Assembly (NCBI GenBank): GCA_000091205.1 | Contig: AP006499.2 | Strand: one strand, 5' to 3' | Source of the DNA: Cyanidioschyzon merolae | Lineage: Eukaryota | DNA: 64,000 nt | Shown: in pieces, positions 8,559 to 64,000 of the stretch | How positions within the stretch are numbered: the first letter of the stretch is position 1 | How the letters are laid out: each line of letters begins with the position of its first letter | The notes under the pieces: generated by a model | Told to the model about the DNA's origin: nothing | The model's database searches: none | Seen by the model: only the letters and a program-made list of their open reading frames with translations | Translations under genes and position numbers: made by a program

Positions 8559-9689
8559 TCATGCGCGGTAGTGTTTCTCTGGGAGGCTGCGAAGGCGTTC
8601 CGCAGCCTGCTCGGCAGTGAGATCACGCTGCGATTCGGCGAGCATTTCGAAACCGACCATGAACTTGCGAACGGTTGCACTCCTGAGCAATGGTGGATAG
8701 AAATGGATGTGAAAGAGTAGACCTGGTTCGGCGGTCGCGGCACCGTTCGCCACGGGCGCCTGGTGCAGCCCCATGCTGTACGGAAAACTGGTCTTGAAGA
8801 GATTGTCGTACCGAACTGTGACTCGCTGCAAAATGTCTGCCAGATCATCCTTCTGCGATGCATCTATGTCCAAGAGAGACTGGCACGAGCCAGTGGGAAG
8901 CACCATGACCTCGAACGGCCATACCGCCCAGAAAGGAACGAGTGCAACAAAATGCGGATTCTGGCAAACAATGCGCTCGTTAGGCCGCTGCAACTCTGCT
9001 TTCAAATAGTCCAAGAGTAGTTCTCGGCCCGTGTCAGCGTAATAGGCACTCTGCAGGCGCAGCTCGGTGGCAATCTCGTTCGGGATGAACGAGGATGCCC
9101 ATATCTGGCCGTGCGGGTGCGGGTTGCTGCAGCCCATCGCAGAGCCCTTGTTCTCGAAGATCTGCACGTGCCGGATCTGCGGCATGGTCGCTAGCTCAGC
9201 GTACTGCTCTTGCCAGGCATCGACAACGCGCCGAATCTCCGAACGACTCATCTCCGCCAGCGTCAAGTCGTGCCGAGGCGAAAAGCACACGACGCGACAG
9301 GTACCGGACACGGGCCGCGCTTGGAACAGCGTGGCGTGCGACGCCCGACTGGCCTCAGCGTCGGCACTGTCAGAGGGCCCATCTAACAGAAGCGCAGGAA
9401 AGTCGTTCGTAAACACAAACGTAGCGTCATACTGGGGGTTTCGGTGCGCGCCACCAGCCCGCGTGTTACCAGGGCAGAGGTAGCACTCGGGATCGTAGCG
9501 GGGTCGTTCTTCGCCACCAACCGTCTCCTGGGCGCCTTGCCAAGGCCGTTTCGCTCTGTGCGGGGAGCACAAGACCCACTCCCCTTTCAGAGGATTAAAC
9601 CTACGATGCGGGTGCTCGGTAAAGTCAAACGACGCCATAAAGACGGGAGTAGTGCAATGAAGCAAGCACCAAGCGCAACGACTTGCCAC
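8559..9689 (-). CDS. GALT: Galactose-1-phosphate uridylyltransferase
   Basis: 'CYLCPGN', '[24 protein letters not shown]' (HPH active site), '[19 protein letters not shown]'; full-length 376 aa. Confidence 0.85.
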
Positions 9690-9767
9690 CGCCTCAACAC
9701 ATCAGGGGCGCTCGCCGTCGCATGAATCGTCAGACGCCGTGGACATGCGCGAGCCGTACGATGGACG

Positions 9768-10545
9768 CCTCGCTCGCCCGGAATGCCGATCAGCATCGCG
9801 CAGTCGAGAATCCCTGCTCCATCGCAACGCTCCGTTGATCCGGCGTTCAGGAGCGCCTCGCTCGCCCGGAATGCCGATCAGCATCGCGCAGTCGAGGATC
9901 CCTGCTCCATCGCAACGCTCCGTTGATCCGGCGTTCAGGAGCGCCTCGCTCGCCCGGAATGCCGATCAGCATCGCGCAGTCGAGAATCCCTGCTCCATCG
10001 CAACGCTCCGTTGATCCGGCGTTCAGGAGCGCCTCGCTCGCCCGGAATGCCGATCAGCATCGCGCAGTCGAGAATCCCTGCTCCATCGCAACGCTCCGTT
10101 GATCCGGCGTTCAGGAGCGCCTCGCTCGCCCGGAATGCCGATCAGCATCGCGCAGTCGAGGATCCCTGCTCCATCGCAACGCTCCGTTGATCCGGCGTTC
10201 AGGAGCGCCTCGCTCGCCCGGAATGCCGATCAGCATCGCGCAGTCGAGAATCCCTGCTCCATCGCAACGCTCCGTTGATCCGGCGTTCAGGAGCGCCTCG
10301 CTCGCCCGGAATGCCGATCAGCATCGCGCAGTCGAGGATCCCTGCTCCATCGCAACGCTCCGTTGATCCGGCGTTCAGGAGCGCCTCGCTCGCCCGGAAT
10401 GCCGATCAGCATCGCGCAATCGAGAATCCCTGCTCCATCGCAACGCTCCGTTGATCCGGCGTTCAGGAGCGCCTCGCTCGCCCGGAATGCCGATCAGCAT
10501 CGCGCAGTCGAGGATCCCTGCTCCATCGCAACGCTCCGTTGATCG
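9768..10545. repeat. Tandem array, 88-nt unit x ~8.8, immediately upstream (5') of GALT
   Basis: Unit 'cctcgctcgcccggaatgccgatcagcatcgcgcagtcgag[a/g]atccctgctccatcgcaacgctccgttgatccggcgttcaggagcg' recurs every 88 nt from 9768. Copies alternate an A/G variant. Confidence 0.9.
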
Positions 10546-10739
10546 AGGAAGTACGCCAAGCATCAAGCGGCCGTCACGTGTGCGTGCTGCTCCCGGTCGC
10601 ACGCGCGCTCCTGCCGCCGACCCAGGCGATCTCGCGTCGGGCGCGCACCGCATTATGTCTGTACCATGCTTTGTTTGCTATTTAGGGTATCTTCTCATCG
10701 AAGAAGCGCCCTGGGACCTAACATCCAACTACACCAAGC

Positions 10740-12204: not shown

Positions 12205-12293
12205 TTTTTTTTCATTGAGAAAACGTTTACTTTGGCCAGCGTTCGCCGATCATGCGCATTGTTCTTTTCTTACCTTTTTTTCTCTTTTTTTCC
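12205..12293. repeat. Copy of ~85-bp T-run-bounded dispersed element (paralog of 40431-40512)
   Basis: About 90% identity to 40431-40512 over 'ttttttttcattga.aaaacgtttac..ggccagcgttc.ccgat.atgcgcatt.ttcttttcttac.ttttttt'. Near-identical 20-nt direct repeats 'tcgag.tcgagtgtgtggg' sit at 12187-12206 and 12485-12504. Confidence 0.6.
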
Positions 12294-12512
12294 AGTGCGC
12301 GGTAATGTATCTATCAACCCCCCACTCCCAAGTTACATTACCTGCACTTCTTCTCGGATATTCTGGTCGTTTCGTACGTCCAATCGTGTGCCTAGTGCCT
12401 GCCGAACGCGACAGCAATAGCGCCTATAGCGCCGGTACGGTCGCTGCACGGAGACAGAACGGCGTTGCTGTACCACACAAAGGGCGCCGGCTCGAGGTCG
12501 AGTGTGTGGGTG

Positions 12513-17829: not shown

Positions 17830-20560
17830 AATTCGTGAGGCGACTTGCGCAACAAGAATACTCTGTCGACGCCCGGCATTCATAGCTATCCACCACATGC
17901 ACATTCCGCAATTCCCCGCACTACTGTTTGGTGGTTTCTTCCTGCACCGAACGTTGGACAAGAGCTCGGATGCTTGGCTCGCGCATCCCGGTCTCCGAAC
18001 CAGATGGCTGTATCTTGGCCACCTGGCACCAGCATGGGTTGCAGATCCCATGGATTGCATCCTGTTCGAATATGGGGCGGACGGCACCTCAGTCGCTCGT
18101 ACCCGGAACGAGCTCTGCGCTTTAGTCATTCAGGAAGAACGCTTAAATGCGCTCGCAGATACGTTTTGTAAGCCAAGTCCGTCGTCTCGCATCTGGTGAG
18201 ACGAGCAGTCACATGCTCTGTCTGTTGAATCTTGTTTTTTGCGTGTTCCTCGTGCTGTAAACGAGCCTCGCCTCGAGGCCGTATCTTCTGCTTCGGTCAA
18301 CGGCACGTATCTGACCCTGGGCTCGAGTACGCGACGGCGACCAGGTCCAGAATACCTGGCTCTTGGCCCACGAGTCTTTCGTAATTTTTCAGAGGCGGGA
18401 GGCTTTCTTCGTCTGCCATTTGCCCCGAGATATTCGGCGATGCGCTCAGTTGAAAGCTAGAACCGAACCCATCCGAGAGAAAATGGAAACTGAATGCACC
18501 GTTTCTGGTTTCGGCTGCTTAGATATTAAGGTTTTCGCGTTAAACCTTCCTCTTCATTTCCTCACTCGCTTTCCTTTCATTCTCAGCATGCCGTGGCGTC
18601 GTAGAATGCCCACGACACTCAAGTAAGTTAAAGGAACGTAACCAGTGATGAAGCCACGCTTTGTAGACAAGAGAGTGTACGTCGTGGGGCGTAGTGTACC
18701 TCTTCTGTCTTGTGCATCCTATTTTCGCCGGGAATTTGAAGCATTTACACACTTTTCTACCAATTCGTTTCACAGCGAAAGAGGCCAACGCTTCTTGGAA
18801 GAATGTCTCAGAGACATGCCTTGGGGAATGCATCTCTTCACGTCTTCCACGATCTCTGCCGCCAAGTTCAGCTTCGAATTACTTGTTCGGTCACTCGGAC
18901 GGAAGCGAACCTCGAGACTTTCGAACGATCCCGCGGGTACGACACAGGAAATCTCTTTTTCTCTCTCCCGAGGCTCTCTTTATTCATTTTCCATACTCCA
19001 GCTTGATCGAATCCTATCTAGGAACGACCACCCGTTTGTGGCCGCTCCGCTCGCCCGAGCTTCGGCCTTCTTGCATCCGCGTCCTCTCAGTGTCTGTTCG
19101 AAGCGAGATAAACGATCATGTGAACAGCGTCCGTCATCGCAAGCGAGAATCCCCAGAATGTGCAAGATCGCAAGGGCGTAGGGTTCCCTTCCCAGTCAGT
19201 TGCCTAAGGTAACTTTAAAACGGGAACGAGACACTTTATATTTCTTGGCGATGATGGTCTTGCAGGGAAGCAACCAGCTACATCTCGGTGAAGCGAACTT
19301 CCCCTTGGGTCACTCGCTCTCGTTCGTCATCCTCTCTCTCCCCAGCTCGAGTCAGACGGTACATTTTTTCTGTGCACCACAGGATGTGTTACACTGGTCC
19401 CAACAGCATAATGTCTTTCTTCACGTGGAAACATACCTTGAATCTCTAATTTATTCGAGAAAACCGAAGACTCGATACGTCATTTTGTTGCTCCAGAGGA
19501 GCTGAACCAGCTTTGCACAAGCGCTGGTGTATGGACGCTGCACTCGGTAACGACGAAATGGAACACACCTGGTCGCAGTGTTGCGATTTCTTTTCCGGGT
19601 TTTTTCAATTGTCCCGCCTTCTTATTCGAAACCCAGAAATAGGAACTTTCGGATTGACACGAACAATACGTATACATGGTTGTCGACTCGGAGAGGCCCC
19701 TTCGATTCGTAGCCATTGGAATTCCGTAGCTCCCGGGAATCACGATGATTCGCGACGCTCTCGAACAAGAATTCGTAAAATAACCTATACCATGATGCAA
19801 TGCATCCGTGCATGCCTCGAGTCATCTTGTATTTGCTAACATGCAGCATGTTCGAATAACGCATGCTTCATGTTTCGATCTTTGTGTCTCGAGGCAACTC
19901 GTCGGCGCTAGAATACGTGCCGCTGGATTGACGACACAAAAAAAAACGCGACATCGTTCATTGACGACTTGTTCGCAAGCTCGTGCTGAAAGTTTGCTGA
20001 GCAATCAAAGTCTAATAATCGATTCCATTCGATTGAAAAATCCTTCTCGGTTTACAATCATCGATGAAACGACATTCCACGTCATCTTGATATCTTGTAT
20101 GATGTATGGTTCCAGATGCTTCCGTCTTCGCATTTTGTACGGAAAACCGTCTTCGACTCGGACTTGAGTTGCCATGGCGATCGCTTCCGCTGGCGAGGTC
20201 GTCATTGCTCTGTATGATGCTTGTGGAACGGATCGAAAGATCTCTGTTTGATCGCCAACCTGGATTTTTCTTCCAGTACTTGTTTCATTGTGGACCAGAT
20301 CTCGTTCCACTAGCCCTCTATCGAATAGAACAGTGTACGCGTCACGGGTATCGCCCAGACGAAGCCCCTGGTTATAGAGTACGGCATCGAACGCGGAAGA
20401 GGAGGGCAGCATCAAGCCGATCCTCGTGCATTCGTCAAAGGAATGTACCAAGCGATAAAACAAGCGTTTACGCGCCACACGGCGACGCCGTGAGCAGGAG
20501 AAAGTGTACTAGACTCCTAGGAACATCTCACCACAGCCAGGTGTCACCAATACGAGGCGC
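17830..20560 (-). pseudogene. Degenerate TnpB/Fanzor-like copy 2 (multiple frameshifts/stops)
   Basis: Minus-strand ORF pieces are collinear with copy 1. 20005-20478 'FDAVLYNQGLRLGDTRD..LVERDLVHNETSTGRKIQVGDQTE..KMTWNVVSSMIVNREG' matches '[58 protein letters not shown]'. 19480-19800 'IIVIPGSYGIPMAT' matches RuvC-I '[14 protein letters not shown]'. 18540-18833 'QKRYTTPHDVH' matches '[10 protein letters not shown]'. Confidence 0.4.
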
Positions 20561-20912
20561 GCACGGAGGCTCGACATCACTTTGTTGAAAATGACAAGCA
20601 GAGCGTAGATCACAACTTCCATATGTGCAAGAGGTAGGTTGACAACAACCGCAAACAGCGAAATCTGGACTTGGACGCTACGATCAATATCTTTCGAACG
20701 TTGCCAACGGAGCTGTAGTGAACGATGAGACCAGCGTTTTGAAAGCTCGAGATATGAGAGAGCATTATGGGGAAAAGTCGATGAAAAAGCGAGTATTGGT
20801 TGCTGCTGATGACAGCGGAAATAGATCCAAAGTTGAGCATGTACTCCCGAGTTAGCAGAATGCACCTGTTCCATTTTTATATTAACATTGGCGTAGAATG
20901 GATCAGGTTCAT

Positions 20913-21791
20913 TCAAATTGCTCGATTGGGATCCTGACTGCGCGCAGAAGCTGCACTTTGTTCGCTGGTGAACGCCCTGCCAGAGGCTGGTTTCCGAGGC
21001 ACACCCCGCGTGGCCTCCGTCAGCCAGCCACCACCCGAGTCCTGGCCGTGACCGCTCGAAACCGCACTCGAGTTCATCGTTCGCCGTGAAGATGCGTCAG
21101 TGGTCGGCTCGATGTACTGCGCTGCGGGAGCCGAAACTCCACCCTTCTCCAGTCCGTCTGCCTGGTCGGTGTCCTCAGTGCCGGACGCTTGGCGTTTGCC
21201 CCAGAACCAGCCGCGCCCCGTTTTCGTGGACCCGGACGATGCTGATGCGGCCGCTGTGGTGTGCGTTGGGCCCGCATCCGCCGCAAACTCATGATTCTTG
21301 CCAAAGAAGACGTTGAGGAAACTGAAAGAGACGATGACGGCCCCAGATACAATTAGGAGCACTTTGCTCACGGTATCGCTGTCGCTAACACCAGCCGTGA
21401 TAGCCAGCGAACCGGTGAACATCTCGAACAAGCCACGTCCCCAGCGCCCTTTCAAGAACCCGAACGGGCGGAAAAAGAAACGAGGCCGACCGATTTCACC
21501 AAATATAATCAGCAAACCGAAAAACGCGACATACAGCATCACAATGAAGCCCAGCGGGTTGCGCAGCGCCTGTGCTGCTGTCGTGAAAAGCGTCACGAGC
21601 CCGAAAACTCCGGTGAAAACGAGAAAACCCCCCGAAACCACTGTGCACCACCGGAGCACTGTGCTTACCTTCCGCAGATCAGCCTCAAAGCAAATGCAGT
21701 TCTTCATCGAAACGAGCCCAAAACGTGCGATGAACGACGCCGACCGTGTACAGCAGTGGCGAACCGTACGCCCTGGACAGACCGTGTCCAA
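20913..21791 (-). CDS. Multi-pass membrane protein (possibly COPI-associated/TVP15-like); true start may be M at 21709
   Basis: Hydrophobic helices 'GGFLVFTGVFGLVTLFTTAAQ', 'GFIVMLYVAFFGLLIIFGEIG', 'LLIVSGAVIVSFSFLNVFF'. GC-rich like host genes. Lies directly between the two Fanzor-like copies. Confidence 0.35.
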   Translation of the reverse strand: MDTVCPGRTVRHCCTRSASFIARFGLVSMKNCICFEADLRKVSTVLRWCTVVSGGFLVFTGVFGLVTLFTTAAQALRNPLGFIVMLYVAFFGLLIIFGEIGRPRFFFRPFGFLKGRWGRGLFEMFTGSLAITAGVSDSDTVSKVLLIVSGAVIVSFSFLNVFFGKNHEFAADAGPTHTTAAASASSGSTKTGRGWFWGKRQASGTEDTDQADGLEKGGVSAPAAQYIEPTTDASSRRTMNSSAVSSGHGQDSGGGWLTEATRGVPRKPASGRAFTSEQSAASARSQDPNRAI

Positions 21792-24265
21792 CTGACGTGT
21801 AGACGCCTCCCCGTCTTTTCGGACCGGGCATCCACCACTGCTTCCAACTTCTTCTCATATAATTCCACTTTTAGAGGTTGTCCAATAAAGTTCTCTCTTG
21901 TCCAATCTGGAGGTCTTTCCTCCAGCACCGCACATTTCCTTATATGGATAGCGGCATTGAAGTCTCGGTTCACATACTCCATCCGTTTTTTGTTGCCATT
22001 GATTGTACGAACAAGCGCAAGGAGTCCACGAACGTTCGCCCTTCTTTCCATTTGCTCCCCCGTCATCGGTCCGTGCTTTGCTATTTCCTCAGGGCTCCGT
22101 TGGCACTTTTCTATCTCCACTCTCTGAAGTGTACACCCCAGTTCCTGGTGTGTATACGATGTTCGAAACTCATCTACAGGTATCGTAACAAAACGCCTTG
22201 CGCACGCCTTGTACACCCTCGTCGTTGGAGCTGGCGTAGTTCCTTTTTGGGTCATCCATCGTCCTGCCCCGTACGCTACAACCAGCCTTTGACTTTCATC
22301 CTCCTTCAGGACGCTCAACTCATTGAAAAATTCGCGAACGCCCGCTGGTTCCCACAATACAAATTCATTCGGAAACGAGCCCACCGGGGCTTGGTATACT
22401 CCTCCCACAGCGCATCCCAATGGGCAACACGAACTTCCATGAATTTCCGAAAAGCTTCAAAGTCCGCTCCACGGCTCGTCATCTCGCTCAGAGCTTCCAG
22501 GTGATCCTTCATTCCATGTCTCGACTTTCTTCCTCGCATTCATTATACCGGATTCTCGATGGTATCTTGCTCTCGAGAACCTCAAAAGACGCATGTCTTT
22601 CTGACGAAAGTTGCCCTCAGTACCATCTTCCGCACGCTTCGGTGCTGTGATGGTGATGATATTTGTGTTTCCGGGGTCCGCGCCAACAACAAAGTCGTTA
22701 TCCTGCACTTTCTGTGTCACAGGACCTGCCTTCTTGGTTTCTTCATGCTTCTCCGCGTAAACGACATGCACGTTATCCTCCACCTCCTGCGTCGCAGGAT
22801 CCACCTCCTTCTTTTCTTCATCCTTCGCCGCGTAAACGACAAGGTCGTTATCCTCCACCTCCTGCATCGCAGGACCAGCCTCCTCCCTTTCTTCATGCTT
22901 CGTCGTGTCAACGACAAGGTCGTTATCTTGCACCCTCTGCGTCGCAGGATCCGCCTCCTTCTCATCTCCATCCTTCGCCACGTCAACGACATGCACGTTA
23001 TCCTCCACCTCCTGCGTCGCAGGACCAGCCTCCTCCTTTTCTTCATCCTTCGTCACGGGCGCAGCTGAGGGAGGGACTGGCCGATCTGCCTTCAACCGCC
23101 GATAGTGTACACACAAGGCTACTCCATCGGTTTCGATCATTCCAGTGAATATCTTTTGTTTGCCGACTTTGAGCCGTTTGAAATCGAAGATATTCTTCCA
23201 GTACGTCTCCCGGTTTTCGCCGGTGAACTCTGTCCTCCTTACATCGAACTCCGGACTGATCTCCTTCATGATGCCGTAAAGGATTCTGGAATCGATGCTC
23301 ACAAAATGTGACTTGATGTTGCACATTGGAACCACGTTGAAGCGCTTCCCCATTAGGACAGCCTCCCGTCTCTCACACGCTTCATTTTTTTCCTCACTCA
23401 GCTTCGTTTCTGCCTTGCGTTCGAGCTCTCAGTCCAGAAACACGAAATATCGCAGGACGAGGCGATAGTATCTTTTCTTATCTTTTTTCATCTCTGATAT
23501 CTTGTCTGTTGGATTCACGAGCCCCAAGACTGCACGGTGCTCTTGTATAGCCGCACGGATTCCAGAAGCTTCATTCGTGAACTAGTTTGACGCTTTCTTG
23601 TCAACGATTTCGACCTCATCTTCACGCTTGCCATCTTTCGTGATGCCATTGATCATCGCCCATGTTCCTTTGCGAGATAGGCCCGGGTAGAGTGCAAACA
23701 CGGCGCGTATCATGAAACGTTCGAGGTTCACTGTCAAATGGTTCTTCAGGTTCGTGATGTACTTCATCGCCCCGTATATGTAAAAATTCGAGTCGCCCTT
23801 GTATCGAGTACCCTCGAAGCGGATTTTGGCGAAGTTTTCGTGGAGGTGCACTAGCACATTTTCCCTCCGCGTTTTCTCTCCACCAAGCATCAGGTGTCGA
23901 ATAAACGTCTTGTCGAAAAACTCGTCCGGAATCTCGACCGTTTCCATATCCGTCACGTCGCGATACATCTCCCTTGCCAAATGCATCAGTCCTGACGACG
24001 CCTTGACAACAATCTTGGAGTACGAGTCGACACGTTTTTTGATAGCGTCTCGCAACTTTTCCCTGTAGGGATCCTTGATATGTCCAAGACGAAAGGTTTT
24101 CACCACCTTCTCGTCGTACAGTCGTCTCTCGTGACGCCTTCGACGTAGGGCCTCCCCCTTTCGGTTCTTCTTCTCTCCCTGTTCTTCTGGACTCGGCACT
24201 GTTTTTTGTTTTTTTCTAGCAGCCGGCGACCATGGCCCTCCAGGATCGTGGACTTGCTTTTTCAT
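21704..24265 (-). CDS. TnpB/Fanzor-like RuvC nuclease (near-intact copy 1); ORF segments 24265-23582, 23353-22457, (22539-22315), 22420-21704 in different frames, probably joined by introns
   Basis: N-terminal basic NLS-like 'ARKKQKT...[17 protein letters not shown]'. RuvC-I '[18 protein letters not shown]' (D at about 22676-22678). Zn-ribbon-like '[35 protein letters not shown]' (HCCH). RuvC-III '[12 protein letters not shown]' (D at about 21962-21964). Confidence 0.55.
22676..23050. repeat. In-frame 75-nt x5 tandem duplication inside the Fanzor-like CDS, ending in the RuvC-I motif
   Basis: Minus-strand protein units '[25 protein letters not shown] / [25 protein letters not shown] / [25 protein letters not shown] / [25 protein letters not shown] / [25 protein letters not shown]'. 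Confidence 0.85.
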
Positions 24266-24582
24266 AACTTTCCTTTTATTAGTTTTTTTTTGAAAAAGAA
24301 CCCTCTTTGAACCCTTGTGTTATATACTGCGAAAAAACACTTGACTAGACTTGTTTGAGGTTTGAAGCAAAAACGAACTGAAAGACTGTACTTTGCCACG
24401 TCTTTAACGCAAGTACAGCTTGCACATTAGAGCAGCACGCTATTGATCAGGATCGCGTTTCCCTTCAACGGCGACAAGTGCGTCGCATCAGTTGACTGCC
24501 CGATCTCCCAGATGCGCTCAGTGAGCGCGCTGGGCGCATCGCCCCGTTAAAAACGCGCAAAGCACAGTGCCTCGACACAAGT

Positions 24583-35546: not shown

Positions 35547-36821
35547 TCATACGAGAACATCTGCACCCGGAGGAAGAGGCGCTCCCCGATTCCCCGACGA
35601 CACGGTATGTGTACACTCGTGCGCAGCATCAGCCGTAACGTCTTGCCGTACCGGGTAGCCGTCTGCGTAGTAGACGCGCTCGAGGCATAGTCCGTGCGCC
35701 GGAGCAGGTTTCACCCGGGGCGCAATGAGCGCACGCCCTCGACTGCCTTGCTGCAGCGCATCGACAACAAGCGCATCATCTAACTCGCCTCGAGCGACTG
35801 CGAGAAATGTTCCCATGATGTTCCGAATCATCCTGTAAAGCGCACCATCGAGCTCGAACTCGAATTTCCACACAGGTACAATACTATCTACGGGGGATGG
35901 CTCGACCGAGATTCGTCGGATCGTTCGTACCGTTGAACGCTGGATCTGGTGGCGATCGGCCTTTCCCGGTGGGCTGCTTGCGAACGCTCCAAAATCATGT
36001 GTTCCTACGAATGTCTGCAACATCTGTTGCGCTACCGCCCAGTGCTGCATCTGGCGGTAATCTGTGTACGCGTAACGATGGTAGAGCGGGTCGATCCATG
36101 CACCAGCAGAAAGGCGATAAACGTAGCGTTTGCCTTGTGCTCGGTAGATTGCATGCCAGGGCAGCAGCTGGTACGTTCGTGTCGAGGGTACAAGATACCA
36201 GGCCGGCGGCGGTGAGACCTCCATCGCTCGTACCTGAATCGTTCGGGGAAGGAGTCGATTCAGGGCATGCTCCAGTCGAGATGGCTCAAATGCGGATGTA
36301 GCGGCCTTCTGCTCGGGAATATCAAAGTGTATGACTTGGCCTCGAGCATGAACACCAGCGTCGGTGCGTCCAGCACCGACTACCTGGCAGTGCCAGGGAT
36401 AACCTCCGAGACGTTGTTGCAGGGCCGCTTCGAGTCGGCCCTGGATCGTTGGTGTCGCTCGTGACTTTGCCTGTCGCTGAAAGCCGTGAAAGTCGGTGCC
36501 ATCGTAGGCGACTACAGCTCGATAGCGCACGAGGTTCTCTGTCGATGGTGCGCTACCCGCGTTGCGAGTAGGCTGCTCACCGGCGAGGCACGCAACCGGC
36601 GACAAGTGACTGCCTCCGGGCAGCCAGCAACGGCGCTCTCGAAGGCATCGCCAGAATTGGCCTAGCCTCGACGCGTGCACGACAAGAAGCAAGCGCTTCT
36701 TTTGCAACTGCGGTCGAGTGACACTCGTAACCCAAGCAGGACGTTTTTTGAGGTCGCCCAGTGCTGCTGGGAAACGCACCTGCTTTGAATCACTAGAGGC
36801 ACTGTGAAACTGGAGTTTCAT
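35547..36821 (-). CDS. tRNA pseudouridine synthase, TruA/PUS family
   Basis: 'YRAVVAYDGTDFHGFQRQ' and 'GAGRTDAGVHARGQVIHFD' (catalytic Asp motif). Confidence 0.7.
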   Translation of the reverse strand: MKLQFHSASSDSKQVRFPAALGDLKKRPAWVTSVTRPQLQKKRLLLVVHASRLGQFWRCLRERRCWLPGGSHLSPVACLAGEQPTRNAGSAPSTENLVRYRAVVAYDGTDFHGFQRQAKSRATPTIQGRLEAALQQRLGGYPWHCQVVGAGRTDAGVHARGQVIHFDIPEQKAATSAFEPSRLEHALNRLLPRTIQVRAMEVSPPPAWYLVPSTRTYQLLPWHAIYRAQGKRYVYRLSAGAWIDPLYHRYAYTDYRQMQHWAVAQQMLQTFVGTHDFGAFASSPPGKADRHQIQRSTVRTIRRISVEPSPVDSIVPVWKFEFELDGALYRMIRNIMGTFLAVARGELDDALVVDALQQGSRGRALIAPRVKPAPAHGLCLERVYYADGYPVRQDVTADAAHECTHTVSSGNRGAPLPPGADVLV

Positions 36822-38962
36822 ATATACATGATCAGTGAAACAAAAAACGTTCTACGACTTTTGAGGGTAAAACTATATCAACGCGCAGAAGCTTCCCAGT
36901 TTGTTTTTCGTACCGGCCGACTGCTATAGGCTTCAGCTCCTCCTGGTAAATCTCGAGAATCAGGGGCTGCCCCACGAGCTCTGATCGCCTAACCTCCTCG
37001 GGTCTTGTCTTCAGCGTCGCCCATGTCCTGATATATGAATGGCGGCGTTCAGGTTTTGTATTCACGAACTCCATGCGTTTGCGGACCCTGGTTGAACGCA
37101 CGAATACACGGAGTCCTCGAACTCGTGCCGCCTGTGCCACTAAAGTCTCGACATACTCCCGTCGAGTAAACGCCTTTTCTCACCCATGTCCGTTCCTGTT
37201 CTTCTTATTGGTCAAATGGTCTGCTTCGCTCGGTGGTCGGCGAGGAGGAGGATTTTTCCTTTTTCAAGCATCCGGGGATGACAGGCCGTCAGGATCCGTG
37301 ACCTCCGTGTCCATAACTTTCCCCTGGATTTTTATTTCCTCAAAACGAACGCATCCCTTTATGCCGTTCGATGAGGACCTTCCCGGAGGCAGAAGGACTT
37401 GCGGAATAAAGACGACCGGTGCCGCTGGTTTCACCGTGGGCTGTACGCCTCAGCGATTCGCTCCGTCGACCGATCATTACACTTCACGATGGAAAACACG
37501 CCTGCGACGGGGATGGACCACGGAGTGTACCCAGGAATGAAAAGCAGCTCTACTCTCGATAGAATCCACAAAAGTTCGAATGCAATGGGAAAAGTCTCCA
37601 ACGATTAGGGAACGGCGTGCTGTTGTATGAGTCTTCTCTACGAGCGAAACTGAGGCCGCCAAATGAATCCACTGCAAATAGAACAGATGAAGAGGTCATT
37701 GGCCTCTTGGATTTCGATCCTACATAGAAAGGACTCCATCTCCACGAATACCCATGAACGCTCCCATCGCCGCGTCCGCAGAAAGCCTCATCGACAGAAA
37801 AACAAACCCCAGTCCCTGTGCTTCATATCGATGGTAACTTACCAGGAACATTGCTGTAGTTACGATTTCGGTCGAAGATGGCCGCGCTTGAACTAGGACT
37901 TTTGCGACTATATCCCAGTGTTTTCGAGACTACACGAAAAAGCTGGTGAGAAATAGAGACGCCCGTTGCGGCTGATATCGTCGGTTTCACCTACCCCAAA
38001 GTGAACAACGGGTCGCCTTCGACCATCTTTCGCAAGCAGTCTATGAATGTACCTGTTTTGGCGCGGAACGCATATACTTGGTCCTTTCAGTGTTCCTCAT
38101 CCAGCCGAGTCCATTGGTATGACTGATCTGAGGGAGGAATGCAGTCCTCATTGAACTGTTCACTAGAGCATATATCTAGACGCAATGCGTCTACGATCTA
38201 TCGAGTACATCGCATAGCGATTTCGATCTCGTGCTATACACCGCAGCAGGGATGAAACAGTACTGCGTTGGAAGGCTATAAGAAGTGATGCTCCGTAGCG
38301 TTAAGCGAAACCGCGGCGCCTCGACCTGGCGCGCGTCATTCGCATCACCTGCCTTTTAGAGAATAAGCTATCGATGAAGCCTCGCTTTGACAGAAATGGG
38401 GCGCGCTGTGGTGTGTTCGACACCCACATTGCGCTTCTTGACAAACGTCCCAAACGAAGACCATTTGCGTTGACGCCGTACCGACGACGCGAAGCGCCCA
38501 GCCAGCGGATCCGTCCTAGGCCTCGCTGGAGGGCGGCGCCTCCTTTGAAACGGCTCCGACCAGCTACGGCTGCAACAGCCGTGCACGTTCAGGAGCGCCC
38601 GTGCAACGCGTCGTCAAGTCGCCGGCGTCGAATGCGTGTTCGCTCCGACGGCTGCCTGGAAGCTACTTGGGCACGCCACTCTACTCAGTAAAGTGACGCA
38701 CTTCAGTCAATGTCATCCGGTGCATACGCGTTTACCAATAGTTCATGGTGAGAGGCGCAGCACGTCTGCATGTTCGGTCGACGATATCGCAACCGCAAGC
38801 ACACGCGATCCCGCGCAGAAAAGCCTTCCCTGTCCCTCTGCATCGGAACGAAATATCCGCGCAGAAATGTCTTCTCGCATGGTGAAGCGCTTCGCTCCCG
38901 AACGCAGTGCGTCAACTGCAGGAATTGCTTCCCGCCAAGTGCGCACGCGCGTGATACGATAC

Positions 38963-40430: not shown

Positions 40431-40512
40431 TTTTTTTTCATTGACAAAACGTTTACGTAGGCCAGCGTTCTCCGATTATGCGCATTTTTCTTTTCTTACT
40501 TTTTTTTTGTGT
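40431..40512. mobile_element. ~82-bp non-autonomous insertion with perfect 13-bp target-site duplication (MITE/retroposon-like)
   Basis: Direct repeats 'ccgcggcctcgat' at 40418-40430 and 40513-40525 flank 'ttttttttcattgacaaaacgtttacgtaggccagcgttctccgattatgcgcatttttcttttcttactttttttttgtgt'. About 90% identical to 12205-12293. The minus strand ends in an A9 tract. Confidence 0.5.
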
Positions 40513-44256: not shown

Positions 44257-45048
44257 TCAGCGCTCGTCGGAACGAGCCTCCCGCTTATCCTCCTTCAGCG
44301 CGTCTCGTTTGTAAATGACCTCATCGATGAGACCGAACGCTTTCGCGGCCTCCGCAGACATGAAATGATCGCGCTCCATTTTGTCCGCAATAACATGCTT
44401 ATTCTGACCCGTGTGCTTGGCGTAGAGCTCGTGCAAACGCTCACGCAGAAACAGAATCTCATTGGCGTGGATGGCAATATCTGAAGCCTGCCCGCCGGCT
44501 TGCCCACTCGGCTGATGAATCATCACACGAGCGTTCGGTAAGCAGCGGCGCTCGCCCGGCTCACCCGCGCATAGCAGCAACGATGCCATAGAGCTCGCCT
44601 GGCCCAAGCAAACCGTGTGCACCGGAGCAGATATATATTGCATGGTGTCGTAGATCGCCATCCCCGCTGAGATGATGCCCCCTGGTGAGTGAATGTACAT
44701 AGAGAGCGCCTTCGCCGGCGCTACCGACTCCAAGTACAGCAACTGCGCAACGACGAGAGAGGCCACGGTATCCGTGATAGGACCGTTGAGCACAATAATA
44801 CGCTCTCTGAGCAGACGCGAGTATATGTCGTAGACGCGCTCTCCTCGCGGTGTCTGTTCGAGGACGATGGGTACGAGTTGCGCTTGAGCGGCGTCAGCGC
44901 CTGCTGTCGTGGGCCCAGCGTCGAAGCCCGGGCCGGTTCGGTTCGGAATCCCAGGGCGGAACCAGGAGTAAAAGCGAGCACGTGCACCTAGACGCGAAAA
45001 AGTTTGCGCAGACGGCAGGATTCGAACCTGCGCGGCGAGACACCACAT
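44257..45048 (-). CDS. CLPP: ATP-dependent Clp protease proteolytic subunit (organellar ClpP) with N-terminal presequence
   Basis: '[22 protein letters not shown]', 'MYIHSPGG', '[15 protein letters not shown]', 'RVMIHQP'. The annotated first Met (45048) lies inside the tRNA-Ser gene. Confidence 0.75.
44997..45001 (-). terminator. Pol III T5 terminator immediately 3' of tRNA-Ser
   Basis: Minus-strand sequence after the tRNA 3' end is 'CAAACTTTTTCGCG'. Confidence 0.45.
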
Positions 45049-45139
45049 GATACCGAGGCGTCAGCGCGAGGCAATGTATACCAGCACTGGCTGCAGAACG
45101 CGTTCGAGTCATGCACCTTAACCACTCGGTCACGTCTGC
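45007..45139 (-). tRNA. tRNA-Ser(CGA) with ~51-nt intron (about 45052-45102) 3' of anticodon position 37
   Basis: Minus strand: acceptor GCAGACG/CGTCTGC (7/7 bp); D-arm ACC-GAGTGGTTAA-GGT; anticodon stem CATGA/TCATG with loop CTCGAA[intron]A; long variable arm TGGTGTCTCGCCGC; T-arm GCAGG-TTCGAAT-CCTGC. Near-identical in architecture to yeast tRNA-Ser(CGA). Confidence 0.8.
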
Positions 45140-47786: not shown

Positions 47787-49995
47787 ATCCTGTTTTATAC
47801 AGTTTCTTCCGTTTTGTAGATGCAGGTACCGTTTCGATGATGCTGCCGACGACGCCGTGCAGCGCTAGGCGCCCGCGGCCAGCACGCTCGCAACGGGCAG
47901 CGTTTGCGCGCATGCATGAACCTCTGCCAGTGCGCGTGTGCGGCACCAGGAAGCACTGAGACGTGTTCGAGGCTGTGCTCTGAAGCCCGCCTGTCTGCCT
48001 GTCTGCCTGTCTGCCAATTGCGGACGCTGTGATCCCGGTAAATCATCCATGTGGCACCACTGCGGCAGGCAGTGCAGAGCTTGAATGCAGCACTCATCGA
48101 CTACCCAGCGTACGATAGCGACGACGCACATTCCGCGTGTTGACACGCGCCGGGTACCTATGGTCGGTGGCTGGAGATCGACAGGGAATGCCAGGTACCG
48201 ACGCCTTACAAAACGCTTTTGCCCGAACTGTGCCTGCTATGCAATGCGTATCGTCGGTCGAGCGACTGACGTCACACTGCAGCGCGCCCAGTAGCGAGAT
48301 GGTGCCAGAAACCTCGTACACGTCATCCAGTCATGCGTCAGGACGATACCTGGAGCTATGAGCACGTCATTTTGACTCTTTCGCTGCAGAGTTCAGCGAC
48401 GATCGACGACGGCATTCGGGAACTGTTTCTGTACCATCTCCGTATGGCAACAGCAGCGGGGTGCTTCCAGGGGCGCAACGGACCCGTGCGCCACACTTGC
48501 CACCCGGAGAGTCGCTTGAACGAATTATGATACCCCGATGCCAAGTAGGGTCTGCAGTTCGTCGAAATCAGGGTCGTGACTGGTGTGTGGACTACCATGC
48601 AGTCGAATACGGGTGAGTCTCGGCCGCTTTCCTGGCTACCGATAACCACGGCACATCCTGGAATCCCCGATTCGTCTCATCGATCCCAGACTATCAGGAA
48701 GGTTTCAGCGACATCGACGCGCTCGAAGCGAGAACGCATAACGCTTCACGATGCGAGGGTTTGCCTTCACCACGAGGGACTCGGATGCTTCCGAGTCGTT
48801 CATGCTGTGCATTCTGATGAACGAGTTGAGGTTAGGCGCAAGCGCCACCTGTTTCTACGTGCTCATCCTCTGACCGAGATCGCTCACAAAGATACGCGTT
48901 CACGTACCCTGGACATTGCCTATCGTATCGAGGAAGCGGGATGCAGTGCGCGATCCGCCACAAAAACGACCGCAGCGCGCTGGATGCGATGCAAAAGCGC
49001 AAAGGCACCCCTGCTGTGCACGAAACGCAACGAATGGCGGCGACTTGCAAGAGATCCACATTGAAACTGCTACAACAAAGCGGTTCATAACCGCTGGGCG
49101 AGCGCTATATAGCTGATACGTGAAGAAACGCAATACCACAAACGGCGCTTCTAGGACGGCCAACACACTCGCGTCATTCGCTCGATGCAGCAGAGCAATT
49201 TTTACATGCACCGTCGACGAAACCCAGCGCCCTGCCTGGACTTGTTTCGCAATATCGCAAGAACAAAGATGCGCTCGTAGGTACCAGAACATGCAGCGCA
49301 TTGCTCTCTCGAGTGAAGCGTGCCGTTGAATCCGCATCCAATGTCATGCAGAATCTGGAACTGGCCCAGCATACACGAATTCATAATTGCCGGCAGGTAC
49401 AGCACCTGTTGACGCGGCTACACCAAGCCGCATCTCGACGAGACTCGATTATGCTGTTTTCGTATCCCGTCAGCGGGTACGGAAAACGGAAACGGCAGCG
49501 GATCGCACCCCGTGATTTCGTGCTTATGGATCGGAAGCGCTGTTGTTCCTGTCATGGTGGCCTCGACGAGAGGTGCCACTCGCAATCCAAACATTCGCCA
49601 CGAATCAGGCTACTGGTGCAGATGCAGTTGATGGTTCAGCAGACGTTGTCAAATGACATCCTCTGTCGCATACGATACTGCACAACGAACGGATTTAACG
49701 ATGCTGCACATGTAGAACAAGTGCATCCGAGGAGACGCTCCACGTTCCGCAGCGTAGATTGCTTTCTGCCTTGACACTATTCCAAAGCGAACCGTCGCCC
49801 CAGGTGTCTCCATACAGCGCGGAGCGTCTGTGCTTCGACCGCGCATCCATTTACCACTGCAACCATTGAACAAGTCGTGCTTCTCGGCGTTATCTAGACC
49901 GGGTCCAACGGTGATGTGCATCGAACAAGTGACCTGTGAGCAACAATGGGCGTACTGGGGATGACAGACTCCGCAACTCGCGCGAGGTGCTCCTC

Positions 49996-50178
49996 GAAAC
50001 CCCGTAATACTCGGGGAATACGTCAGGCCATAAAGCCGAATGGCCCCGACGATGCATCATTGCATGCAAAGAAGCAGCATAACCTGGAAACCCCGTAATA
50101 CTCGGGGAAAACGTCAGGCCATAAAGCTGAATGGCCTCGACGATGCATCATTGCATGCAAAGAAGCAGCATAACCTGG
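49996..50178. repeat. 91-nt x2 tandem repeat with internal inverted repeats, in 3' flank of the WDR82 gene
   Basis: 'gaaaccccgtaatactcggggaa.acgtcaggccataaagc.gaatggcc.cgacgatgcatcattgcatgcaaagaagcagcataacctgg' occurs twice. Contains hairpin 'ccccg-taatac-tcgggg'. Confidence 0.85.
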
Positions 50179-54864: not shown

Positions 54865-55992
54865 GAATGCATGCGTGCACGCATACGCCCGCGCATCGAT
54901 GAGCTGCCCTGTACTGGTGGCAGTCGTCGAGCGGCTGCGATTGCTGCCAGGCTCTATTGCGCGTGCATCGGTGCATTGGGACACGACGCAGTGCAGATTT
55001 TTCCTCTTTGACACATCGTTGAAACACCCACGCAGACGGACGGCAGACCAGCGATTCCCGATTGCGCGATGGATATGAGCGATTCGCGAAGCATCCGTCG
55101 TTGCACGCCGTCATTCCATACTCAAGACCCATACGTACTCGCGGGGGTACTTGTTACGTTTCACGTTGCATCGGGCGCGGCGTGCATGCTTTAAGCGTTC
55201 GCGATAGCACGCACGGCGCCGGCGCGTACGCAGCACAGACATAGAACGGCTGTGCGATACCACAGAAGGCATTGAATCCGTAATGTCGATGCTATTCGCT
55301 GCGGCGATCGGGGTACGGCGGAGCGCGCTCGGTGGGTGGCCCCCGCCCGAGAATCCCGCAACCACAGAATCAGGTTCCGAATTGCATGGCGAGCTCATGC
55401 ACCTGCTCCCAGCAGCAGCGTATCGGAGCAGTCGGGGAACCCAGACCAGTAGTTGCATTGACAACGTAAACGAGCACCGTCTGATCGCGAGAATGGACCC
55501 AGCGACGTTGGCATCCGACCGGAGCCTGCGCTTCGTTGGCGCTCGTACTTGATGAAGCGCGCGACGCTGCGATCGGCAGGACTGACGTTGACCGCCATCT
55601 CTGTAGTCACGCACCTGGGATGCACGAATACCGCTGCTGGAGCGACGCTCGAGGATGCGCACGCGACCCATACCAATCGGGGAGCGCCATCGTCGACGAT
55701 GGCGATAAAGGCACGGCGCCCGCTGGAACGCGTGAATGCCGAATACCGGCGACCAACACGACGCCATGCGGCTGCACAGGGCCGGGCAGTCGGTGCTCCT
55801 GAGTCGTCGCGCGGGCTCGTGGCGGTGCAGCTGGCACCGACCGAAGCCCTGCCGCAGGCGCAGCTTCGTTTTCGACGGCGATCCGTCGTTGTCGTTGGCG
55901 TCGTCGTCGTCGTCGAGACGATGCACCACACAGAGCTGCTGCCCCGGATCCGGCGAGGCCAGTGAACCACGCGCCCATGCTGCAAGCATACT

Positions 55993-63093: not shown

Positions 63094-64000
63094 TTTCTCT
63101 CCGACGATAAAACGTTTCCATGGACAATGGGTCCCAGATTGTGAGATGGATAATGATTATCGAAAGAGCGTCCATCATGACGCACTTACCTCCGAGTTCC
63201 ATTACCTATACTTGCTTCCAGATGTACTGGTCGTTTCGTATGTCCTATCGGTCACAGAGTACCTGCTTTGGGCGCCTGCGGTAGCGCTTATATATCGCTG
63301 ATGCCGATGCATCACGGAGACAGAACAGCGTTGCCATACCGTTGAGTTCGCTCGGGCGTACTGTGAAATGTTTGGCTCCCTTCCCAGTGTCATCAATACC
63401 AACCTTTGCAGGCTTTTTCTGTGACCGTTTCCCGTCGCTTTCTCTTATCCCTGGCTTGACATGCACCAGTCTCGCCTTTCTATCAAGAACAGCTGTCCAG
63501 TGTCGAAGGACGTTGATCACAGCGTTCAATGGCCGACTTGCCGCTTCAGGCTGTTGTCGACGCATACCATGCACAGGTGAACGTTGCGATCTATGCTTCG
63601 CTTGCGATTTTCATCTTCCATGGATAGAGCTTCGGTTGCCCTGTCGCAGATTTGGCACGTCCGTGTAATCGGATGTTCGCATATGTCCACCACACCGCAT
63701 CCTCCGAGGTGCACCCTGTTTCACGTGAACACTCGCGTCGTCGCTCGCTACGTACCCGTGACGAATACGAGAAATCGTCTCGATGCCTTCCTCCATCTAC
63801 GCGCTCGGTGCAGTACCCTGGAATCACGGGCTTCTTCTGTGCGATCCAACTGCCGCTGCTCTGGCTGTTGCAAGCACGTGTTGTACTATTCTATAACGGA
63901 CTTATCGAAGACGATGTATTCAACGACGAAACTATTACTTGAAGCAAAATCAAGGCTGGACAAGAAGGCAGGGAACCTCGATCTGTCCATGGTCGCTTCG

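Follow-up and report, generated by a model that had tools for sequence, protein, structure and literature searches.

A candidate omegaRNA scaffold of a red-algal Fanzor1 family ends just before the start codon of a host membrane-protein gene in Cyanidioschyzon merolae

Where a Fanzor nuclease gene runs into its neighbor, the question arises where the guide RNA of the element, if there is one, would be encoded. The locus considered here lies in a stretch of 64,000 nucleotides (nt) from Cyanidioschyzon merolae (GenBank assembly GCA_000091205.1, contig AP006499.2), all of which was analyzed and which we call the window. In it, a Fanzor-like nuclease gene (copy 1) on the minus strand runs toward a gene for a membrane protein on the same strand. 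A first-pass annotation had placed the guide RNA (omegaRNA) of copy 1, if one exists, at 20900-21710, reasoning that in such systems it is encoded at the 3′ end of the nuclease gene and extends into the right end of the element. Our analysis indicates that this interval codes for a conserved host protein and does not encode a guide RNA, and that the best candidate for the omegaRNA scaffold of the family is a putative RNA of ~70 nt, a scaffold-like module that lies upstream of the interval, at about 21716-21775. We consider this explanation, taken as a whole, to be probable.

The flagged interval is occupied by a single gene:

20913 to 21707, minus strand: coding sequence (CDS) of a COPI-associated membrane protein, a host gene (Pfam PF08507, orthologs, DNA homology to locus L085).

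This CDS starts at ATG 21707-21705 and stops at 20913, within an enclosing open reading frame (ORF) of 20913-21791. The ORF matches the Pfam family COPI_assoc with 39.3 bits against a cut-off of 30 (E=8e-10), which bears out the suggestion that it encodes a membrane protein. We found five COPI_assoc homologs, among them named proteins of Cyanidiococcus and Cyanidium; the orthologs of Cyanidiococcus yangmingshanensis (66% identity) and Cyanidium caldarium (51%) begin, like the window protein, at the same MKNCI... methionine. The host protein resembles other members of PF08507: its transmembrane segments are conserved, other Cyanidiophyceae have orthologs of it, and nothing about its gene is unusual except that a transposon ends 5-9 nt 5′ of its start codon. 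In a related alga (loci L085 and L086), a ubiquitin-conjugating enzyme gene (UQ_con) is followed by COPI_assoc at a distance of ~800 nt, with no Fanzor gene between them, compared with a spacing of 4.2 kb in the window, and DNA homology between the window and L085 starts exactly at the host ATG. Because of the orthologs, the same neighborhood without Fanzor, and the homology that begins at the ATG, these comparisons indicate that 20913-21707 is a host gene with a lineage-specific insertion, the Fanzor element, ahead of it. Apart from the host CDS, 20900-21700 contained no sequence feature. Rfam scans, which covered the whole window at the gathering threshold, gave nothing credible in 20400-22600 at E<=10, where matches were at chance level only.

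If the interval belongs to the host, the apparent end of the nuclease ORF inside it has to be explained. Two features are relevant:

21704 to 24265, minus strand: ORF of the Fanzor1 pseudogene, copy 1 (three-frame translation; comparison with locus L007; family profile and fold search).
21775 to 21773, minus strand: CAG codon at the family stop position (alignment with paralogs; family consensus TAG/TAA).

Alignment A2, made with MAFFT, covers the 3′ ends of the window copy and of 44 other independent paralogous insertions, 45 in all. These 45 distinct insertion sites represent 79 retrieved loci (within L005-L084), which were selected through the protein. In this alignment, the family consensus stop falls on the window CAG, and intact family proteins end in ...SWRRFV* or ...SWRLLG*. 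The ORF of copy 1 appears to end at 21704 because the family stop is replaced by CAG; the alignment thus marks 21772 to 21704 as read-through and the TGA at 21706-21704 as something other than the family C-terminus. The overlap of reading frames described earlier is real, in that the minus-strand ORF ending at this TGA overlaps the ORF 20913-21791, and the TGA shares two bases with the host ATG (ATGA), but 21704 is a read-through end. The family stop itself is polymorphic (A2 columns 183-185), with TAG or TAA in ~28 of 45 copies and CAG or CAA in ~10 of 45, and copies of the latter kind, such as the window copy and the one encoding protein P0004, read on through the right-end module.

The right end of the element is placed by the same comparison. 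The 45 insertions are conserved up to the equivalent of window position 21731-21716 and unrelated beyond it, and the nhmmer family model aligns to the window as far as 21716, with an envelope to 21710. Copy 1 thus ends 5-9 nt before the host ATG, a looser reading putting its end at 21731. As such, it does abut the membrane-protein gene, as had been proposed, but nothing of the element lies below 21704, where it had been sought. That the scaffold itself sits within 20900-21710, overlapping the membrane-protein gene, is hardly credible: the read-through ORF end at 21704 is all that speaks for it, whereas family homology ends at ~21716, the true family stop is at 21775-21773, the CDS is conserved across Cyanidiophyceae, including a relative without Fanzor upstream, and Rfam offers no credible match.

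Seeking a guide where the nuclease gene has its 3′ end was nevertheless sound. Family copies share a partly structured 3′ element that runs from the ORF end to a sharp boundary. It comprises ~70 nt after the stop codon, with a small hairpin, a linker and a terminal hairpin, and the flanks beyond it are unrelated among the 45 insertions. In the window, its parts and the adjoining ORF end are as follows:

21776 to 21955, minus strand: final ~60 codons of the Fanzor1 ORF (conservation by codon position).
21758 to 21772, minus strand: small hairpin SL1, with stem GGCG, 7-nt loop TACGGTT and stem CGCC (alignment, RNAalifold).
21746 to 21757, minus strand: conserved single-stranded linker ACTGCTGTACAC, family consensus ACTACTGTACAC (alignment A2).
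21713 to 21750, minus strand: degenerate remnant of the long terminal hairpin, TACAC... (alignment to the 44 other insertions; fold energy).

Across the 45 insertions, the GGCG-N7-CGCC stem of SL1 is nearly invariant (96.7% of cells paired) and its 7-nt loop is hypervariable, while the linker is the most conserved non-coding block of the alignment. In the terminal hairpin, the upper stem usually reads CGTCGTTCGA/TCGAACGGCG, the lower stem varies widely in length, and many copies lengthen the whole hairpin to 15-19 bp by pairing (TA)CAC... with ...GTG(TG). Over the final ~50 codons of the ORF, conservation no longer follows codon position, the third position being conserved as well as the first and second (+60 to +240 past the RMEYVNRDF anchor); upstream of that stretch, third-position conservation is clearly lower. 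Since conservation here is at the nucleotide rather than the codon level, these codons may belong to the 5′ part of an RNA or DNA element. In window coordinates, nucleotide-level constraint sets in at about 21925, and the module possibly reaches back to about 21955. Matches to the right-end module stand beside the ORF 3′ end in 83 of 85 cases, and there were no clear ORF-less "ghost" copies among the 85, both counts being biased by the choice of loci through the protein. The bases just past the terminal hairpin are often GT-rich or resemble simple repeats, for example TGGTGTGTG, (GTGC)n and (GGTGGC)n (L020, L043, L044, L057); an element tail, a target preference and an insertion trace are candidate explanations for them.

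The hairpins are real. The terminal 48 nt have a mean minimum free energy of -17.7 kcal/mol, compared with -9.4 for ORF windows and -10.8 for flanks of the same copies, and z is below -2 in 23 of the 45. Sequence-divergent copies keep perfect long hairpins (L041, with CAACGTTTTT/AAAGGCGTTG, as well as L031 and L019), the arms of L031 and L019 being entirely different in sequence, and both-sided changes occur at seven of the nine upper-stem pairs. A 250-nt consensus folds with z=-5.9. This larger consensus fold, with its long-range helix of 7-9 bp (CAGTAGTGG/CCACTACTG), has no covariation support, and we do not claim it; the pairing partner that it offers for the linker (CAGTGGTGG at 21840-21832) is not supported by covariation either.

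As for the identity of the nuclease, the window sequences taken singly say little: Pfam returned nothing significant for the nuclease among the window ORFs (a TNB match at E=0.23), and single-sequence searches of the PDB with the nuclease gave no matches, so that only the family profile and a fold search were informative. A profile of 43 family members matched PpFz1 (9cf0, E=1.1e-22), SpuFz1 (8gkh, 1.8e-18) and GtFz1 (9cer, 8.3e-10) in the PDB. We further modeled a family member, P0117, which is 47% identical to the reconstructed window protein, with AlphaFold2 (AF2; mean confidence, pLDDT, 87.7). The seven best Foldseek matches of this model were all Fanzor1 (SpuFz, PpFz, GtFz), with E from 9e-18 to 1.6e-15 and TM values of 0.63/0.69 and up to 0.63/0.71; the model has the bilobed TnpB/Cas12-like fold with a RuvC domain, and Cas12f and Fanzor2 structures match it far more weakly. 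Profile and predicted fold together indicate that the protein family is genuine Fanzor1, in keeping with the initial description of the nuclease as Fanzor-like. In the window protein and its close relatives, the place of the C4 zinc finger between the E and RD motifs (as defined by Bao and Jurka) holds two Cys only (LGC...EKC), and the TNB zinc ribbon of the family seems, from these sequences, to be degenerate.

The family is large and old. At least 457 stretches in metagenome contigs from the same alga or algae were confirmed as family members by tblastn, DNA identity among copies is 70-87%, and most copies are pseudogenes, some having intact ORFs. No terminal inverted repeat (TIR) was found in a repeat search of the window or in upstream alignments of copies. 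These properties recall CMe-1A of Cyanidioschyzon merolae, described as an element of ~3 kb with ~150 copies that are ~80% identical to their consensus, without TIRs or target-site duplications (TSDs), and with a 5′ part in common with another repeat (Bao and Jurka 2013, PMC3627910). The likeness extends to the Cyanidiophyceae host, the ~3-kb element with a single Fanzor1 ORF, the very many old copies (~75-80% identical, some intact), the lack of TIRs or obvious TSDs, and the 5′ region shared with another repeat. As such, the window family matches a Fanzor1 element of the CMe-1A kind, judged by the published description of CMe-1A rather than by the Repbase consensus. The 2013 paper predates omegaRNAs and reports no 3′ module, whereas the window family has one.

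How the module compares with known omegaRNAs can now be considered. In SpuFz1, the scaffold is the ~75-nt region from the stop codon to the right end, and transcripts continue 14-15 nt into variable sequence, which is the guide (Saito 2023, PMC10432273). The omegaRNAs of solved Fz1 complexes are 75-150 nt long and consist of a first stem-loop, one to three more stem-loops and then the guide (Xu 2024, PMC11423790). The red-algal module resembles those of SpuFz1, PpFz1 and GtFz1 in occupying, or overlapping, the stretch from stop codon to right end, in its size (~70 nt after the stop, possibly more), in the small stem-loop that comes first, with one or more others after it, and in its sharp boundary with a variable flank at the place of the guide. 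It differs in that it shares no sequence similarity with them, in that their elements have TIRs and the red-algal one does not, and in its SL1 stem of 4-6 bp versus 7 bp in the solved complexes. Two properties expected of an omegaRNA are present in the family: the module lies on the nuclease strand, overlapping the ORF 3′ end and reaching the right end (21775-21716), which is not true of 20900-21710, and a conserved scaffold gives way abruptly to copy-specific sequence in the 45 insertions.

From these likenesses, we infer that the module acts as RNA. The scaffold would be transcribed on the sense strand, would end at the element boundary, and would run on for 14-20 nt into the flank, which would serve as the guide. 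In copy 1, the scaffold would extend from ~21775 (or earlier) to 21716, and the guide would lie at ~21715-21697, across the host start codon:

21697 to 21715, minus strand: hypothetical guide-equivalent, 15-19 nt 3′ of the right end, over the host 5′ leader and start codon (by analogy with SpuFz1).

The earlier expectation that a guide RNA would map to 20900-21710 thus fails for the scaffold and could hold at most for a hypothetical guide-equivalent of ~15 nt (about 21715-21697).

Several results weigh against this interpretation. Over the whole proposed structure, 83.9% of cells are paired, compared with 83.0% in shuffles; 44 of 500 shuffles attain its covariation score; and the helices besides the terminal hairpin are nearly without compensatory change. 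From the 45-sequence MAFFT alignment, RNAalifold obtains no helix but the 4-bp GGCG/CGCC stem. Mismatches of the G-T type are as frequent as those of the A-C type (30 versus 28 in the terminal hairpin, 45 versus 43 elsewhere), so that no strand-specific selection is seen among copies; neutral decay of dead copies would produce such equality. Since most copies are pseudogenes, conservation reflects common descent to a large extent. No Rfam family matches the module region. In addition, the right-end boundary in the window is uncertain by ~5-15 nt (21731 to 21712), and an empty-site comparison did not fix it to the base, as the intergenic DNA of L085 does not align. The more distant relatives L088 and L089 have 3′ ends unrelated to the family, leaving no cross-family covariation to draw on.

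Some of these results bear on a second explanation, namely that the 3′ module is a DNA-level transposition signal, a hairpin recognized by a transposase supplied in trans, and either is not an RNA or is both. Hairpins work in this way at subterminal sites of IS200/IS605 and at the ends of Helitron and Helitron2 elements. A hairpin at the very end of the element, with pairing kept despite sequence change, would suit such a role, as would a 3′ end common to copies whose 5′ ends vary, and the lack of a G-T excess over A-C means that the RNA strand receives no support from the mismatches. Fanzor1 genes, moreover, frequently reside in Helitron2 elements that have a hairpin at either end, and CMe-1A lacks TIRs and TSDs (Bao and Jurka, PMC3627910). 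However, of the hallmarks of IS200/IS605- or Helitron-type elements we found the right-end hairpin only, with no transposase ORF (Y1/HUH transposase or Rep/helicase) in the element or in the flanks examined, and one hairpin pair is most often T-G (25 of 45 copies), which can wobble on the sense strand only. The right-end signal of TnpB and Fanzor elements is itself omegaRNA scaffold sequence, so the RNA reading stays compatible with a DNA signal. In IS200/IS605 TnpB elements such as ISDra2, the 3′ end of the nuclease ORF likewise overlaps a structured right end, whose hairpin could function in transposition and in the guide RNA alike; here, however, there is no TnpA, the host is eukaryotic, and the nuclease is Fanzor1 rather than TnpB. 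We regard a DNA signal as possible, if somewhat unlikely as the explanation of the module. At the other end of the element, neither the left end nor a target-adjacent motif (TAM) could be defined, as the 5′ ends of copies vary (at least two classes, with differing truncation points).

Whatever the module does in the family, copy 1 itself would hardly use it. The element spans ~24542 to ~21716 on the minus strand, its frame running from ATG 24265. The RuvC motifs D (GADPGNTN), E (VDEFRTS) and D (NRDFNAA) can be read directly in its translation and are invariant in family alignments A1 and A4. Three-frame translation revealed in-frame stops at 23584-23582 (TAG) and 23431-23429 (TGA), and comparison with L007, the same locus in another strain (97% identical, carrying only the first of the two stops), revealed frameshifting deletions of 8 bp near 22516 and 1 bp near 22331, so that copy 1 lacks the intact ORF expected of an active copy. 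Two further features were located in it:

24502 to 24542, minus strand: 5′ limit of copy 1, where homology with the other copies starts, including a short palindrome (blastn boundaries 24542/24538 in several loci; upstream alignments).
22679 to 23057, minus strand: four tandem 75-nt repeats (25 amino acids, acidic) within the ORF, upstream of RuvC-I (repeat search, family D3).

The number of acidic 25-amino-acid repeats varies among family proteins, being higher in P0006 than in P0004. Other family copies extend >500 nt further upstream than copy 1, in two variants, and because of this additional shared sequence copy 1 is clearly 5′-truncated. At its 3′ end, copy 1 keeps the small hairpin and the linker, and its terminal hairpin is degenerate: the terminal 48 nt reach -9.3 kcal/mol (z=+0.7) versus the family mean given above, and a fold of 21712-21778 gives a structure unlike that of the family. 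Because of the two stops and two frameshifts, the 5′ truncation and the lost terminal hairpin, copy 1 is almost certainly an inactive relic.

The upstream sequence of >500 nt defines two 5′ classes of copies (variant A in L019, L021, L011 and L060; variant B in L051, L049 and L026). Copies are truncated at different 5′ points, recalling the TE-N2_CMe 5′ part of CMe-1A.

The second Fanzor copy in the window has decayed further:

36866 to 37140, minus strand: copy 2, a heavily decayed C-terminal Fanzor1 fragment (tblastn, 40% identity; nhmmer; alignment).

Its nhmmer match (37046-36880) spans model positions 1-162 only, and the right-end model finds no match in it, so that copy 2 has no recognizable right-end module. 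Thus, the comparison of 3′ flanks among copies and paralogs that the first-pass annotation had suggested did recover a structured element common to 45 insertions, but copy 2 is without it and copy 1 has lost its terminal hairpin. The copy 2 fragment sits just upstream of a pseudouridine-synthase-like ORF (36821-36880 region).

The position of both copies in front of a host gene raises a third explanation for the conserved 3′ region, that it is kept as an outward promoter or leader for the downstream host gene and makes insertions beside start codons tolerable. Of 40 independent insertions, 31 have their longest downstream ORF on the same strand and 9 on the opposite one (binomial p=7e-4), and in 12 of the 31 the first ATG of the same-strand ORF lies <=25 nt from the estimated right end. 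Both window copies fit, copy 1 ending 5-9 nt before the COPI_assoc ATG and copy 2 before the pseudouridine-synthase-like ORF. The downstream genes, however, were called crudely (longest ORF, first ATG) in GC-rich DNA, and a promoter leaves unexplained why hairpin pairing is maintained through sequence change; we judge this explanation to be distinctly unlikely. A broader proposal joins it to the omegaRNA reading: the module would be an undescribed Fanzor1 omegaRNA of Cyanidiophyceae, and the elements would lie preferentially before same-strand host starts, with guides that would match host leaders and start codons and 3′ ends that would serve host genes as leaders or promoters as well. We find this combination doubtful; if true, it would tie a eukaryotic OMEGA system to the expression of host genes in a very compact genome.

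Other repeats and genes in the window and its relatives deserve brief mention. Dispersed repeats D5/D6 occur at 12328-12476, 55212-55261 and 63192-63340; two of them match the variant-B upstream region weakly (69-73%), and the D5/D6 repeats may be fragments of a TE-N2-like element. Tandem arrays occupy 9678-10681 (88-nt units, ~9 registers, up to 100% identical), 511-1164 (109-nt units, 5) and 49992-50173 (91-nt units, 2). A 77-nt direct repeat (12205-12281 and 40431-40507, 28 kb apart) is 91% identical and has T-runs at both ends. A tRNA match of 133 nt on the minus strand (45007-45139, Rfam 48.9 bits) was not called by ARAGORN and presumably contains an intron, typical of Cyanidiophyceae. 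A transposase gene stands beside a distant relative only: in L089 (435-3600), P0126 (65% identical to P0117) directly follows one of the DDE_3/Tc1-mariner type. The first 32 nt of the L088 contig (1-32) recur as a direct repeat at 2293-2325, ~140 nt past the Fanzor stop codon, which is directly followed by a stem-loop.

For the window, these results have little consequence: an ordinary host gene stands beside a Fanzor relic. At the level of the family, they provide a concrete omegaRNA candidate, with boundaries and architecture, for a large Fanzor1 family of thermoacidophilic red algae. CMe-1A has been known since 2013, and we found no description of its guide RNA in the literature searched. 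These algae, whose genomes measure 10-17 Mb, live at low pH and at 40-56 C. Some copies have intact ORFs, and an active member would provide a eukaryotic RNA-guided nuclease with natural thermotolerance. The preference for sites before host starts, if real, would bear on how such elements persist in a genome of 10-17 Mb.

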